From NCBI GenBank assembly GCA_964016885.1, contig OZ024748.1:27280001-27344000 (forward strand): a DNA stretch of 64,000 nt. Direction: 5' to 3'. Below are positions 17,963 through 62,002 of this stretch, one piece after another. Source of the DNA: Eledone cirrhosa (Eukaryota). The notes below the pieces were generated by a model. The model saw only the letters and a list, made by a program, of their open reading frames with translations, ran no database searches and was not told where the DNA came from. Made by a program: the position numbers and the translations under genes. The first letter of the stretch is position 1. Each line of letters begins with the position of its first letter.

Positions 17963-17998
17963 TTTCCTGAAGAAGGGCTTCGGTCCGAAACGTCGAAA
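17963..17998 (+). ncRNA. Minimal type I hammerhead ribozyme
   Basis: tttc-CTGAAGA-a-gggc TTCG gtcc-GAAAC-GTC-gaaa: stem I tttc/gaaa, stem II with UUCG loop, palindromic ACGT stem III, GUC site. Confidence 0.8.
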
Positions 17999-18228
17999 CC
18001 TCCTCCATTTCCACCAAGCGTGAACCTAATATAACTGTGTAAAAGTAGCCTCCTGTGTTTTGTTTGTTTCATTTATTAACTACATATATATATCTGTGTG
18101 TGTGTGTGTGTGTGTGTGTGTGTGTGTGTGTGTGTGTGTGTGTGTGTGTGTGTGTGTGTGTGTGTGCGTAAATCTTTAAATTATTGTTGAAGAGACGTTT
18201 TGGAGATTTTCTAAATAATAATAATAAT

Positions 18229-18490
18229 AATGATTTCTAGTATAGGCACAACGCCAGTAATTTGGGGAGAGGGGAAAGTCGATTAAATTGACCCAGTGCG
18301 TGACTGGTACTTTATTTTATCGATCCCGTAAGGATGAAAGGCAAAGTTAACCTCAGCGGGATTTGGTTAACTTTACCTTTCATCCTTACGGGGTCGATAA
18401 AATAAAGTACCAGTAACACACTGGGGTAGATTTAATCGACTTTCCCCTCTCCCCAAATTACTATACCCTATACTAGAAATCGTTATTATT
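18229..18490. repeat. Head-to-head fused SINE family 1 pair (foldback)
   Basis: Arms of about 120 bp inverted around 18350-18365. Confidence 0.8.
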
Positions 18491-19104
18491 TTAATTATAT
18501 CAAAGATAATTTTAATAATAAATTATTTTATTCAATATATATATATGCACATGGATATACGTGCACACTACACACGCACACACACACACACACACACACA
18601 TATATATATATATATATATATATATATATATATATATATATATATATATATATATACATATATATATATATATATATATATATACGTATATATATATATA
18701 TATATATATACGTATATATATATATATATATATATATATATATATATATATATATATATATATATACGTATATATATATATATATATATATATATATCCA
18801 TATATATATATATATGTGTGTATATATATACACATATATATATATATATACATATATATATATATATATTTAGAAACACACAGATACACGCGGACACACA
18901 CATATATACATGAATGCATCCGCACCCAACTGTGAGTTAAGGGTGCCAACTTCACCGATGTTGCTCAATGAATGACTGGGACAGACCAATTCAGTTTGAA
19001 CCAGACTGAACCAGTATCAGAGTTAAAAATACATTATGAAGAGAGAAGAAACATTTAGATATAATTAGTAATAAAATGTATCATACCTAAACTGCTCCTA
19101 AATT

Positions 19105-19190
19105 CCTCGACTACGTAGTTTCGTGGCATAAACAAAAACAATATATCAAAGATATAGAGTCCTTGCGAGGTCTGCCAACTTATCAAGAGG
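19105..19190 (-). ncRNA. Type I hammerhead ribozyme, U3-A8 variant (copy 1)
   Basis: cctc-TTGATAA-gttggca...tgccac-GAAAC TACGTA GTC-gagg. Confidence 0.8.
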
Positions 19191-19695
19191 ATACCTCATT
19201 TTACTAGTCTCAAGAACGCGTCTACACGACGTGAGAAAGAATCCCAAAAGGCGGAGGGGGAGATAGTCACGCGATATAACGGTCGAGAAACAGAGCTAAG
19301 CCTCTTATAACCACGAAGAAAATACCACGGAGGCGGAGGGGGTATTCATATCGAGGCCGTAGAAGAGGTAGTGAAGAAGGCGAGAAGTATGAGTAATGGA
19401 AGCTTTCCAGTTGTCCCCACACTTCAAAGATTGCTCGACCAGAGGGAGTTATTAATATATTTAGAAACACACAGATACACGCGGACACACACATATATAC
19501 ATGAATGCATCCGCACCCAACTGTGAGTTAAGGGTGCCAACTTCACCGATGTTGCTCAATGAATGACTGGGACAGACCAATTCAGTTTGAACCAGACTGA
19601 ACCAGTATCAGAGTTAAAAATACATTATGAAGAGAGAAGAAACATTTAGATATAATTAGTAATAAAATGTATCATACCTAAACTGCTCCTAAATT

Positions 19696-58119: not shown

Positions 58120-60310
58120 TTATCAACATGAAATGCCAGGGAACAGAACATTTCACCACAACAGAAACACCGCTACCTCAAATGGGAATTATTCTTTAGA
58201 ACAAGGTGCCTCCCACCAAATGAAAGGAAAAAATAAAAAAATACCACCCTTCAAATGGCACCCGACGAAAAAACTCCAAAGGAACCAAAAATAATCAACA
58301 TATCGGCAAAAAAACTAACACAACAGGAAATAAAATTGCTAGAAAATGGACTGAAATTCACACCCCCTCCAAAAGCAGATGAAGCCGACCTTATTATAAA
58401 AGACAGAAGATTTTTGTCAAAAATTACGTCTAGGAGAATTCTTCAAGGGTGTAGAATACAAGGAGGAATCACTAGTAAGAAACAAAAAGAACTTCAGGCC
58501 TCCATTAAATAGAGACAAACACCTGGAGGACTACATAACCTACCTCCGACGATCAGCACAGTCAAATAGTGCTGAGACGAAACACAAACACAAAATCCCT
58601 ATAGACCAACTGCAAGCACTAAACAAACTACAAAAAGACGCCTCAATAATCATAAAAGAAGCGGACAAAGGTGGAGCAATCATGGACAAAAACCACTAAC
58701 AGTTGAATAACGAGGACTTTTACAGAAAAATCAGCAAAAACGAAGAAAGAAAATCGATGATTAAAGTAGGCAAACTGACGACCAAGTACCAAAACAACCT
58801 CACACTAAAGGAAATCAATTACTTAACCAGCTTCGAACTAGATCTACCAACTCATAATATTATAATATTATAAAATTAAATCAAATTATTTAACACTACA
58901 AGTGAAGTAATTCTTTTCCTTTTTTTCAAATATATATATATATATATATATATGATAAAAAATGTACAGAGGGACGATGCAAAAACAAGACAACGGCATA
59001 CATGGAAGAAACAGCCCATAGCATAGGAGAGAGAGATTACAGGAACACTGGCGAGAACTTAAGAAGGAGAAAATCTCATCAGTGCTATACCAATATGCCG
59101 CATTAGAACACGAGGGCTCAATAGATAACATAGAAATAAAGTGTCATAAATGTGTCATTTTTGTGTTTTTCTCTTCTCTCTCTTTTCTTATTCTGTCTTT
59201 AGTTGACCGTTACTATCGACCGTTTCTTATTCTGTCTTTAGTTGACCGTTGCTATCGACCGTTTCTTATTCTGTCTTTAGTTGACCGTTACTGTCGACCG
59301 TTTCTTATTCTGTCTTTAGTTGACCGTTACTGTTGACCGTTTCTTATTCTGTCTTTAGTTGACCGTTACTATCGACCGTTTCTTATTCTGTCTTTAGTTG
59401 ACCGTTACTATCGACCGTTTCTTATTCTGTCTTTAGTTGACCGTTACTGTTGACCGTTTCTTATTCTGTCTTTAGTTGACCGTTACTGTTGACCGTTTCT
59501 TATTCTGTCTTTAGTTGACCGTTACTGTTGACCGTTTCTTATTCTGTATTTAATTGGCCGTTACTGTTGACCGTTTCTTATTCTGTCTTTAGTTGACCGT
59601 TACTATTCCGCACGTATTTTCTGTTCAGGCTGGGTTTATTTTCTATTATGTGGATGGCCTCAGTAATTTGCCTGAGTGTTGCATTAGTTCTATGTGTGGA
59701 TAGGATCTTTATTTCTATGTTATCTATTGAGCCCTTGGATTCTAGTTTTACATGTTGGTATAGCACTGATGAGATTTTCTCCTCCTTAAATTCTCGCCAG
59801 TGTTCCTTTAATCTCTCTCTCCTATGCTATGGGCTGTTTCTTCCATGTATGTCGTTGTCTTGTTTTTGCATCATCCCTCTGTACATCTTATCATATAGAC
59901 TACATTTCTAGTTTTGCAGTTTATCGGTGGGCATTTCATACAGGCTATACAGTTTCTATCAGCACAGGGAGGTTCTTAAAAGAGTATGTCCTATGATCCG
60001 GGATTTCATGGTAGCTCCTGGTTTTTCTACTACTTTAGTCTTAAGGTTCAATTTATCTAAAGCTCTTCTAAAACAATACACTAGTTCGCCTCTAGGGGTA
60101 GCATCGACGAAAATGACACTCTGGTATTTTTGGCTGTCATCCCAGGAGTTGGCCTTCCCTATCTTTTTCCAAATACATAAATTTGTGTGTATATATAGAT
60201 AGATAGATAGAGAAGGCCAACTCCTGGTATGACAGCCAAAAATACCAGAGTGTCATTTTCATCGATACTACTCCTAAAGGCGAACTAGCGTATTGTTTTA
60301 GAAGAGCTTA
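58120..60310. mobile_element. Rearranged Penelope-like element (N-terminal/RT part on +, GIY-YIG in both orientations, terminal foldback)
   Basis: INISAKKLTQQEIKLLENGLKFTP, IIIKEADKGGA, YMEETAHSIGERLQEH, LRQITEAIHIIENKPSLN. 58950-59140 is inverted versus 59710-59890; IR at 60060-60309. Confidence 0.75.
59184..59606. repeat. 39-bp minisatellite (about 10.5 copies)
   Basis: Unit ttcttattctgtctttagttgaccgttactatcgaccgt with no spacers. Confidence 0.95.
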
Positions 60311-60898
60311 TACTAAATTTTGTTGTGTGTGTGTGTGTGTGTGTGTGTGTGTGTGTGTGTGTGTGTGTGTGTGTGTGTGTGTGTGTGTGTGTGTGTGTGT
60401 GTGCCATGTGCCAGACACAAAGGAACAGTGAAGGTGGGGGCTACCCCCAACTGGCCCTATGTTAGTCTCCCTTGCCATCACAGTCAACATATGAGAAGTT
60501 CCTCTTAATGAAGTTTGTCGAATAATAATTTTTGATTTATGTACAAGGTCAACAATTGGAGCGGGAAAATCGATTAAATTGACTCCAGTTCGTTACTGGT
60601 ACTTTATTTTATTGACCCTGTAAGGATGAATGGCAAAGCTAACCTCGGTGAGATTTGAACTCGAAACAAAGTGAGGAGGAACAAATACCGAGTCATCTTT
60701 AGTCCGGTGTCCTCACCACTCTAGAAAGACAGGGAAATCCGTATCTCTCTCTATAGATAACCAGTCTTTCACAAATATTCTTTTACTAGTTTCATTCATT
60801 GGATACCGGCCAACATATACATATATATTATATCATATACATATCATATATTATATTACATATATATGTATGTATATGTATGTATGTATATATATAAA

Positions 60899-61055
60899 TG
60901 GACACACTAGAAGAGGAAGACCAAGGTTAACGTATGTTGATGCCCTAAGGATAGACACTGGTCTGTTGGAGACGCAGGACATGGCAGCGATAATGAGGGA
61001 CAGAGACCGCTGGAGAGAACTCGTCCATGGATCTCGGGAATTTTACCCGCCTTAG
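60899..61055 (+). mobile_element. RTE 3' fragment
   Basis: GHTRRGRPRLTYVDAL...DRDRWRELV. Confidence 0.6.
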
Positions 61056-61956
61056 ATATATATATATATATATATATATATATATATATATATACATCTC
61101 TCTCTTTCGCTCTTTCTGTCACTCTCACTCTCTCTTTCCCTCTCTCTCTCTCTCGCTCTCTCTCTCTCCCCCTCGCCTTCCCCTTTCCCTGTTTCTTTCT
61201 CTCTCTCTCCCACTCTCCCCCTCGCTTTCATCTCCCCCCCCCCACACTCTCTCTCTCTCTTCTTTTTCATATTTACAAAGTTGTGTGTACAACTTTCATC
61301 TTTATATATATTCCGTGCGGGCCTGTCACTTTGGGAATGAGTTAACGGTACTTTAAGTATTATTTCATCATTGTTGATGCTGTCAGTGACATTTTCCTTG
61401 CAAAGTCGCGAGTTTTTTCTGAATTATTTGTATATATTGTTGTTTGGTGGCATTTGAAAATTATGTAGGACAGTTAATCCTTGCAGGATGGTTGAATCCA
61501 CTCCTTTTTTCAATTTATTTATTTATTTACTTTTTGTTTTGTGGACATTAAAGTCAAAACAGTTATTTTATGGTTATATAATCAAATTTGATTTAGTCCC
61601 GAATAAAAAGTGAAAGGTTATAGGACAGTAGATTGTTTCTTACCATAACCTGATTCTTTTTCTGAAAGTATTATATATATATATATATATATATATATTG
61701 TTATATATATATAGTAATAATAATAAATTTGATGAAAGCAGCGATTCTTTGCTTAAACTTTAATCTGTTATTTTAATAAATATATATATATGTATATATA
61801 ATTTAATTCTTATTATATATATATATAAATATATATATATATATATATATATATAATTTAATTCTTATTATATATATATATATATATATATATATATATA
61901 TATATATATATATATATAATTTAATTCTTATTAATTCTTTTTAATTGTAATACTCA

Positions 61957-62002
61957 CCATTTGATAAGATGAATTTTACTAATACATCGAAACCGGTTAT
62001 AT
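61957..62002 (+). ncRNA. Hammerhead, U3-A8 variant with decayed stem I
   Basis: at-TTGATAA-gatg...catc-GAAA CCGG TT-at. Confidence 0.55.

Follow-up and report, generated by a model that had tools for sequence, protein, structure and literature searches.

The 64,000-nucleotide stretch of the Eledone cirrhosa genome analyzed here (the window) raises two questions: whether the swarm of hammerhead ribozyme (HHR) motifs reported in an initial annotation is real, and, if so, what kind of element carries it. Our answer, which we hold with considerable confidence, is that the motifs are minimal type I HHRs at the 3' ends of many Penelope-like element (PLE) families, a location that is demonstrated in four cases and likely in the others; that most copies in the window are likely inert, 5'-truncated fragments; and that one family, B, is a 591-bp unit lacking an open reading frame (ORF) that is likely copied in trans by PLE enzymes.

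Hammerhead motifs in the window and beyond

The features identified are listed below by position in the window; pLTR denotes the pseudo-LTR of a PLE.

17963..17998, plus strand: minimal HHR of family A, a short repeat with dispersed copies; C3-G8, one additional base following A9, palindromic stem III of 4 nt
18600..18869: (TA)n microsatellite that served as target, to the left of the family B insertion
18864..20110, minus strand: left arm of family B; the ORF-less 591-bp unit repeated 2.1 times head-to-tail; 3' end within a TA run, at unit position 47
19104..19191, minus strand: HHR of family B; U3-A8, stem II bulged and bearing a long hairpin, stem III a 10-nt palindrome
19695..19782, minus strand: HHR of the second family B copy in the tandem, at a distance of 591 bp from that at 19104
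20111..20396, plus strand: right arm of family B; a 5'-truncated copy in inverted orientation; 3' end within a TA run, at unit position 473
20234..20321, plus strand: family B HHR of the inverted arm
20394..20513: (TA)n microsatellite that served as target, to the right of the family B insertion
22953..23309: family C insertion; 3'-end fragments of a putative Hydra-type PLE as a head-to-head pair, long 3' end left, short right
23083..23147, minus strand: family C HHR; C3-G8
23205..23269, plus strand: family C HHR; C3-G8
24626..24663, minus strand: family E HHR; U3-A8, stems I and III decayed; pLTR fragment of a putative Neptune/Nematis-type PLE
25075..25115, minus strand: family F HHR; C3-G8, 2-bp stem II
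29002..29044, minus strand: family G HHR; C3-G8, stem II closed by an A-A mismatch; without a firm link to an ORF
34127..34576, minus strand: decayed PLE ORF fragment; 30% identity to the putatively Hydra-type L234 protein
39662-40129: family D inverted repeat; left arm holds the 39782 motif
39782..39827, minus strand: family D HHR remnant; G5 changed to C
39963..40008, plus strand: family D HHR; U3-A8, stems II and III decayed; sister subfamily C3-G8
43880..43918, minus strand: family J HHR-like motif; U3-A8, position 13 fixed as C; fragment from the 3' end of a putative Neptune/Nematis-type PLE, tail of ~40 nt
51759..51794, plus strand: family A' minimal HHR; architecture as family A
56445..56493, minus strand: family H HHR; stems I and III decayed
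58279..58840, plus strand: decayed PLE ORF fragment; up to 72% identity to the L111 protein
59599..60165, minus strand: decayed PLE ORF fragment; 45% identity to the L236 protein; further pieces at 58960-59141 and 60213-60320
61959..62000, plus strand: family I HHR; U3-A8, 2-bp stem I

Within the 64-kb window, a type I HHR-shaped motif was found at all 14 coordinates named by the initial annotation, to within 1-2 bases, and the core boxes YUGANRA, GAAA and UH occur in order and intact in 13 of them, the exception being 39782, where G5 has become C. These minimal type I sequences belong to 10 repeat families and represent 10 independent insertions, one holding three motifs and two holding inverted-duplicate pairs. 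A strict descriptor (stem I of at least 3 bp, stem II of at least 2 bp, a self-complementary stem III and an optional extra base after A9) matched seven sites, all among those named (17963, 19104, 19695, 20234, 23083, 23205 and 51759), whereas 100 dinucleotide shuffles made in 200-nt blocks averaged 0.19 matches and never gave more than 1; without the optional base just three matches were obtained, two of them named. A looser score gave 10 matches against 0.73 in shuffles at one threshold, where unnamed sites such as 13498 enter, and 19 against 4.4 at its lowest threshold.

The seven motifs failing the strict descriptor show mismatches, broken stems or 2-bp stems and are decayed or atypical. 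Decay has broken stems at 24626, 39782, 39963 and 56445; the 2-bp stem II at 25075 and the 2-bp stem I at 61957 are family traits; and 29002 combines a family trait, an A-A next to the core, with one change in stem III. The reported type, the minimal HHR of PLEs and retrozymes, is upheld; stems I and II close on the core, with stem III self-complementary, strictly in seven of the 14 motifs. The families, 10 in number as noted, were also said to look unrelated; 17963 (family A) and 51759 (family A') share a common architecture, so this is not true of all. The U3-A8 swap described for UUGANAA cores was read at 19104/19695/20234, 24626, 39963 and 61957, and in the family of 39963 (D) subfamilies with C3-G8 and with U3-A8 stand side by side, a covariation inside one family. 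In an Rfam scan of the window, HHR models were absent among the 150 matches listed of 332, nearly all of which were microRNA models on microsatellites or hairpins and none of which lay above cut-off, and a genome search with Hammerhead_1 did return a family, but another, canonical one absent from the window. A general repeat search of the window was dominated by TA repeats.

Outside the window, the strict descriptor found 32 matches in 400 kb, against 1.4 in shuffles, with 18 of the 40 sampled 10-kb stretches positive; two or three of the 32 appear accidental. From these stretches we estimate ~230,000 strict motifs genome-wide (range 130,000-330,000), or about one HHR per 13 kb, and in HHR content the window does not stand out within this genome. 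The loci gathered at that stage contained 55 distinct motifs, which fell into 28 sequence clusters, and each of eight named families searched by DNA gave hundreds to thousands of first-look candidates (1886 at 83-90% identity for family A). The dense, diverse population originally proposed, and its excess over shuffled controls, therefore stand. Chance matching in AT-rich, repeat-rich sequence, although loose scoring lets in accidental matches and a few of the sampled ones look so, has a negligible probability and is ruled out by the shuffles and by family context, namely the many candidates per searched family, the location at PLE 3' ends and the covariation inside family D; the 14 motifs are confirmed as real repeats.

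Penelope-like elements as probable carriers

Elsewhere in the genome, HHRs of families C (23205), E (24626) and F (25075) lie downstream of PLE ORFs. Scoring a link where a same-strand HHR lay no more than 2.6 kb downstream of the endonuclease end, at a consistent distance, we counted nine hits for family E with an L109-type ORF, 16 for family J with an L115-type ORF and eight for family C with an L234-type ORF; family F HHRs lie 490-624 bp downstream of Hydra-like ORF remnants at seven loci, a tie to that type made only through remnants 33-53% similar. Two elements have the order HHR-ORF-HHR: L109 (family E), whose intact 938-aa ORF with RVT_1 and GIY-YIG domains stands between HHRs 4,979 bp apart, and L234 (family C), with HHRs 4,263 bp apart. 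The HHRs of families E, C, F and J are accordingly PLE pLTR components, flanking or following an ORF for reverse transcriptase and GIY-YIG endonuclease.

The L109 protein carries GLKF, DKG, a C-X4-CxxC linker and, at the C terminus, GIY-YIG, and the linker before GIY-YIG was read in L115-type translations as well; Neptune/Nematis elements are described with DKG and a CX2-5CxxC linker before a C-terminal GIY-YIG (PMC8557442). The L234 protein, in which Pfam found no match, has RWR and DKT motifs without GxKF, and the Hydra clade is described with RWK-like and DKT motifs and no GxKF (PMC8557442). Judged by motifs alone, E and J would be Neptune/Nematis-type and C and F Hydra-type PLEs, likenesses to EN+ clades found here in two HHR-bounded elements. 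Paired alternative 3' ends occur ~90 nt apart in family C, ~65 in E, ~40 in J and ~165 in B, and inverted arms occur in B, C and D. Paired copies of family F at C17 and of family H at C1 were considered as full elements and rejected as local duplications. Family J has 11,056 exact matches genome-wide with a fixed A13C core, so that the sister-like pLTRs of E and J read GAAA and GCAA, respectively.

For the other six families, eight PLE protein queries over 15-30 loci each yielded a link at one locus for A, at two ambiguous loci for D and at none for A', G, H and I (the genome-wide search took in the other five). A family D copy following a PLE at L161 was not accepted as a true link; a TA run lies between them, and it was read as a separate insertion. 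Homology in these families is mostly limited to 150-320 bp around the HHR. Given such weak or absent links, some of them could be further ORF-less units, or families whose masters have been lost.

The initial annotation went further and saw in the motifs a population of mini-retroelements, that is, independent ORF-less retrozymes, each an active ribozyme unit. Family B alone is shown to spread as an ORF-less unit, and the short homology of the six families would suit the same interpretation; for most motifs we nevertheless find it improbable. PLE ORFs lie next to the HHRs of families C, E, F and J, so that most motifs are likely dead 3'-end fragments; 5' truncation alone gives short homology, and family C comprises short as well as long copies; no tandem monomer arrays occur among the self-repeats listed for those families; and copies differ by 5-20%, with changes alike in core and stems. 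The window copies of most families, decaying and 80-95% identical, are what would be expected of 5'-truncated insertions from full-size PLEs.

Family B, an ORF-less 591-bp unit

Family B accounts for 7,444 exact matches to a 24-nt HHR sequence genome-wide (control, 0). Its unit has no reading frame open all round, and ORF run-in was seen in none of 38 insertions. The insertions consist of tandem arms set in TA repeats; the 5' ends vary, the longest arms reaching 4.4 units, and the 3' ends are fixed at two sites separated by 165 nt. Twenty-eight of the 38, a set in which 24 are a biased draw (22 picked as near-identical to the window copy, two incidental), are two-armed, every one head-to-head; the two sites account for 63 of the 65 3' ends that could be read, and 25 of 27 readable two-armed insertions have one end of each kind, the same site never being used twice. 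Among the first 100 matches, 14 junctions were minus-then-plus and none plus-then-minus, and 20 of 35 same-strand spacings were exactly 591. No autonomous partner sharing family B sequence was found in ~350 loci examined; pieces of PLE ORFs lie close to family B at 13 of 39 loci and were rejected as a partner, being adjacent elements on the far side of TA repeats, and the type most often adjacent has an HHR-like motif of its own. In predicted folds the unit is self-paired (z of -6.2 when linear; -169.6 against -135.9 +/- 7.3 kcal/mol when circular), and monomer folds of the HHR do not, in most cases, exceed shuffles in stability (z of +0.2 to -2.3). Self-cleavage by the HHR is predicted.

Family B is a young, protein-free mini-element, likely copied by PLE enzymes, and we infer the following route. 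A PLE reverse transcriptase-endonuclease, probably a dimer, would cut a (TA)n target with a nick in either strand; from each nick cDNA synthesis would be primed at one of a pair of start sites internal to the RNA, both offering a short TA-like run in the template; the cDNAs would vary in length, reaching at most 4.4 units, and would be joined to each other where 5'-truncated. Less firmly, the HHR may cut multimeric transcripts into 591-nt monomers that form circles and are read round repeatedly. A circle read more than once would explain arms longer than one unit and the near identity of units within an insertion.

The strongest competing account, which we judge a serious contender though less probable than not, derives the arrays from linear transcripts that read through donor loci arranged in tandem, or from DNA duplicated locally once the element had inserted, with no circular RNA and with the HHR as a passenger. 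Divergence is 0.35% within arms, 0.30% between arms and 1.19% between insertions, and is lower within than between insertions at 31 of 32 loci. Seventeen locus-private variants are common to all passes, and those present in every pass and both arms (for example at L295, L290, L285 and L267) require that a monomer was recopied at some point, which argues against a purely linear origin; variants in some passes only, comprising 10 of 46 family variants and 55 private ones, including those confined to two passes at L286 and L291, point the other way. Local amplification of pLTR remnants has been proposed, with one of nine dimers cleaved, in a preprint (bioRxiv 10.64898/2026.07.22.740005), but family B arrays are dispersed and keep the same 3' register. 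That the HHR is a passenger would agree with the dispensability of cleavage in vitro (PMC11167929) and with the abundance of family J despite its A13 change; against it, the U3-A8 box is kept in 215 of 215 family B cores while the bulged base varies, a count in which overlapping loci recur, the family is young and the search pattern required flanking identity.

Each of two runs gave one contig of 620-621 nt closing on the 591-bp unit; traces of host DNA with tandem copies collapse likewise, so these contigs weigh neither for nor against a circle.

Tentatively, and as less probable than not, the observations may be read jointly. This would be the largest HHR population yet measured in one genome; family B would be a young circular-RNA parasite recording the PLE reaction, in which a dimer primes both strands of a TA repeat, each subunit has its own start site, and a ribozyme-made 591-nt circle is read more than once; and an A13C PLE family would have multiplied to more than 11,000 copies either with no need of cleavage or with the change in a supposedly invariant core base made good by contacts with protein or within a dimer.

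Relation to described elements

HHRs in PLEs and the U3-A8 swap were reported in 2014, as were cleavage by dimers and the presence of many families in one genome (Cervera and de la Pena, PMC4209133), and since the class is known the swarm is not surprising in kind. The sections of that paper available to us describe the same minimal type I motif with palindromic stem III, extra base between 9 and 10.1 and U3-A8 variant, and the same many consensus families per genome, mostly as single truncated copies, with inverted pairs 100-700 bp apart; they give ~2,000-9,000 motifs per genome, compared with the estimate reached here, and contain neither a fixed A13C family nor this host group. A literature search found nothing pairing a hammerhead ribozyme with A13C and, judged by the listing, no work on hammerhead ribozymes in cephalopods.

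Animal non-LTR retrozymes were described in 2020 as circles of 170-400 nt (Cervera and de la Pena, PMC7229834) and more recently as PLE parasites of 51-972 bp (Li, Clavereau and Pollet 2026, bioRxiv 10.64898/2026.07.22.740005). As far as the available parts of these sources go, family B resembles them in its self-paired, protein-free units, arranged head-to-tail with a type I HHR in each, and in proposed mobilization by PLEs. It falls outside the 2020 definition (170-400 nt, canonical HHR) in its 591-nt length, PLE-type U3-A8 core and long stem II hairpin, and inside the wider 2026 one (units of 51-972 bp in tandem, with an HHR either canonical or minimal); neither inverted arms nor a pair of fixed 3' ends appears in those parts of either source. 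Family B also differs in that no pLTR homologue was found (~350 loci), and it is known here from DNA alone. Non-autonomous Chlamys PLEs such as MRC1 (PMC8557442) are likewise ORF-less, head-to-tail, multicopy, pLTR-like and targeted to microsatellites, but they mostly lack an HHR and their 3' end resembles an autonomous partner.

A tail of 30-40 bp, an inverted copy and TA preference are described for PLEs (PMC8557442), and in vitro the Poseidon_Ac PLE uses two internal start sites not homologous to the target, extends both strands, is predicted to be a dimer and inserts without need for HHR cleavage (Frangieh et al. 2024, PMC11167929). Family B shares the start-site pair defining a tail, the proposed cutting and extension of both target strands and the AT-rich targets; it differs in a tail of 165 rather than 30-40 nt, in the use of different sites by its two arms where Poseidon_Ac showed no strand difference, and in ends that coincide with short TA-like template runs.

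The value of this population is as test material, for how animal retrozymes mobilize and for whether PLE hammerheads must cut. With thousands of young insertions whose junctions bear a PLE signature, family B offers more direct evidence than co-occurrence and pLTR trees, and its rule of one start site per arm is sharp enough for an in vitro assay. The estimated density makes HHRs usable as markers of truncated PLEs in repeat annotation of this genome, and families E and J form a natural mutant pair. One family J motif, at 43880, lies in the window itself and had been missed by the initial annotation.

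Hammerhead motifs in the window and their abundance in the genome

Inspection of the window sequence showed a type I hammerhead-shaped motif at each of the 14 positions where the initial annotation had claimed one. The shuffle control it proposed was run using a strict descriptor (stem I of at least 3 bp, stem II of at least 2 bp, and a palindromic stem III), which retrieved seven motifs, all among those named. The mean was 0.19 (maximum 1) when the window, a setting of 35.6% GC that is rich in microsatellites, was shuffled 100 times in blocks with its dinucleotides preserved. 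Stems pair to this standard in these seven hammerhead ribozymes (HHRs); the remaining seven have mismatches or 2-bp stems while keeping their core boxes, except at 39782 (G5C). Alignment of the window motifs with genomic copies distinguished defects due to decay from those that are family traits. Altogether, the 14 motifs represent 10 insertions.

We applied the same descriptor to a genome sample made up of 40 10-kb stretches at round coordinates on 21 contigs, and retrieved 32 motifs spread over 18 of the 40 stretches, versus 1.4 in 20 shuffles. With background subtracted, the density comes to about 76 per Mb, equivalent to some 230,000 motifs across the 3.0-Gb assembly (bootstrap 130,000-330,000), for a sample that is not random, over-weights small chromosomes, and includes two or three of 32 matches that look accidental. 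The density within the window is 109 per Mb; its HHR content is not special for this genome. Lunse et al. are said to have found about 150,000 hammerhead variants in total. In the available text of earlier surveys, minimal HHRs number approximately 2,000-9,000 in a genome (PMC4209133), and axolotl has up to 120,000 copies of retrozymes (PMC7229834). A canonical-looking family absent from the window, found elsewhere (L001-L018) and frequently in inverted pairs, matches Rfam Hammerhead_1.

The swarm of ribozyme-bearing mini-retroelements originally envisaged is upheld in its abundance and in one young retrozyme-like unit (family B), but its motifs are otherwise probably hammerheads of the ends of Penelope-like elements (PLEs). 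It is explained in kind by PLE-end HHRs, together with a young parasite resembling retrozymes and a core variant of an unusual sort (family J); the parasite and the variant make open mechanistic questions testable. The available portion of PMC4209133 already describes minimal HHRs of PLEs, with the U3-A8 swap, the extra base, the multiplicity of families in one genome, and pairs in inverted orientation. For Octopus vulgaris, the accessible text of a repeat annotation includes a count of PLEs active in recent times but contains neither "hammerhead" nor "ribozyme". Our literature search, outside subscription journals and Repbase, found nothing on hammerheads in octopus or cephalopods.

PLE reading frames associated with hammerhead families

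A first look at the genome yielded 10,595 GIY-YIG candidates, of which 150 were scored; 30 GIY-YIG loci were examined and 20 places extended, picked mainly for long open frames. One locus, L109, is a whole element, with a 938-aa ORF containing RVT_1 (28 bits, slightly below cut-off) and GIY-YIG domains, bounded on both sides by family E HHR copies 4,979 bp apart. Another, L234, has a PLE ORF flanked on either side by a family C HHR and bearing RWR and DKT motifs, a type assigned to the Hydra clade in the available text of PMC8557442. Intact-looking PLE ORFs, measured stop to stop, occur at L111 (1775-5062, +, 1096 aa) and L109 (3809-6622, -, 938 aa), both with long, microsatellite-filled 3' UTRs.

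When the first same-strand HHR downstream of the endonuclease end was tabulated across all loci collected, ORFs of the L109 type were followed by family E (9 matches, 850-1,336 bp), the L115 type by family J (16 matches), the L234 type by family C (8 matches), and Hydra-like remnants by family F (7 matches, 490-624 bp). Scattered pairings at inconsistent distances were also present (B after L236- or L111-type ORFs seven times, C after other types three times, D twice, and A at one locus); those examined, at L104, L161, L287 and L288, proved to be separate insertions across TA runs. The loci collected, which for A' came without a dedicated genome-wide search, linked none of A', G, H and I to an ORF. 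Families C, E and J display two alternative 3' ends, then TA repeats, delimiting a PLE tail. Copies of the older families diverge by 5-20%, and because core, stems and flanks are all changed alike in alignments, they read as neutrally decaying, 5'-truncated insertions.

Structure and proposed spread of family B

18864-20396: family B insertion, 2.1 tandem 591-bp units plus an inverted 286-bp arm, TA repeats on both sides

The 591-bp unit has no reading frame open all round and folds far better than shuffled sequence. A 24-nt piece of its HHR has 7,444 exact genome matches (control, 0); the first 100 fall into 51 clusters and include 14 minus-plus junctions but no plus-minus junction. Family B insertions in the genome are estimated at about 3,800. 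From 38 loci, dropping L282 (a duplicate of L279) and splitting L292 in two, we obtained 38 insertions: the 14 that come first on contig 1, 22 picked for near-identity to the copy in the window, and 2 met incidentally. No insertion continues into an ORF, and the longest arms reach 4.4 units. Two arms are present in 28 of the 38, every one with 3' ends outward. Of 65 readable 3' ends, 63 map to unit positions 46-55 or 467-474; 5' ends are scattered. Both sites end in a short TA-like run. Each arm has its own site in 25 of 27 readable two-armed insertions (exceptions, L272 and L291), the same site never being used twice (0/27); a hand calculation puts the chance of 25 of 25 under free choice at about one in thirty million.

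According to the accessible text of PMC11167929, purified PLE protein, a predicted dimer, cleaves both strands of AT-rich DNA and extends them, begins reverse transcription at two internal RNA sites bounding the tail, and assists its HHR, with insertion being independent of HHR cleavage. Family B probably spreads in a comparable manner: its RNA would borrow a PLE protein, the nicked strands of a TA repeat would each prime at one of the two RNA sites, and the cDNAs would stop at random, then be joined head to head. No partner element was found among the loci collected.

Unit copies (passes) differ by 0.35% inside one arm and by 0.30% from one arm to the other, versus 1.19% between insertions (36 loci, without L272 and L282, and without L292 in the within sums). 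Over 36 loci, every covering pass carried the variant for 36 of the 46 family variants and for 17 of the 72 private ones. Private variants that passes share favor a recopied monomer, and we lean modestly toward a ribozyme-made circle as template. Linear multimers are a less probable source, to which L286 and L291 lend some weight: variants there in two passes only suggest heterogeneous linear templates or later duplication.

Family B resembles the non-LTR retrozymes (PMC7229834) in being an ORF-less tandem HHR unit, and PLE derivatives of Chlamydomonas are likewise ORF-less and head-to-tail (PMC8557442), as far as the available texts describe them. A 2026 preprint (10.64898/2026.07.22.740005) argues from co-occurrence and trees of pLTRs (the pseudo-LTRs of PLE ends) that retrozymes derive from PLEs; its genomes are mainly vertebrate, and its accessible portion reports no junction analysis. 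The family B unit also occurs at about 99% identity in runs labelled as three other organisms, which may reflect related species, traces of host DNA, or transfer. Separately, mutually repeating flanks up- and downstream of another HHR (L305, 1210-1288, -) suggest that a second tandem unit exists, ORF-less and about 520 bp long.

The family J core variant and other features of the window

43880-43918 (-): HHR-like motif of an eleventh family (J), GCAA for GAAA (A13C)

The family J core with C at position 13 occurs in 11,056 exact copies, and the tail of this family is about 40 nt; in family E, its apparent sister, the base is the normal A. Changes at A13 generally cripple hammerhead cleavage. 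That HHR cleavage is dispensable for family J is the likelier reading. A13 is part of the consensus core in PMC3088659, whose section about natural variants covers the C3-G8 to U3-A8 swap, A6C, insertions and changes at 15.1-16.1, with no A13 substitution; inactive variants in its supplementary figure may bear on A13. A literature search for an A13C hammerhead found no paper.

Further features of the window are as follows.

2624-3055 and about 9700-9826 (+): glycerol-3-phosphate dehydrogenase exons, best matches octopod (Argonauta, Octopus), 64-65% identity
about 36600-36720 (-): short exon-like frame with LSDEIY, presumably recalling class I aminotransferases; no Pfam match
46707-47810 (-): non-LTR retrotransposon fragment, RT or endonuclease of non-PLE kind, RVT_1
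38258-38788 (+): non-LTR retrotransposon fragment, RT or endonuclease of non-PLE kind
11068-11889 (-): non-LTR retrotransposon fragment, RT or endonuclease of non-PLE kind
20713-22703: degenerate AT repeat of 2 kb, separating the family B insertion from that of family C
52498-52677, 60060-60309 and 18232-18481: inverted-repeat insertions without HHR, beside microsatellites
40722-40950: tandem repeat, 113 bp
43979-44224: tandem repeat, 124 bp (pair), belonging to the family J 3' region
59184-59604: tandem repeat, 39 bp

The Argonauta and Octopus matches of one short dehydrogenase exon point to a likely octopod host. The degenerate AT repeat fits a picture in which PLEs targeted TA runs again and again, and the inverted-repeat insertion at 60060 sits inside a PLE ORF remnant.
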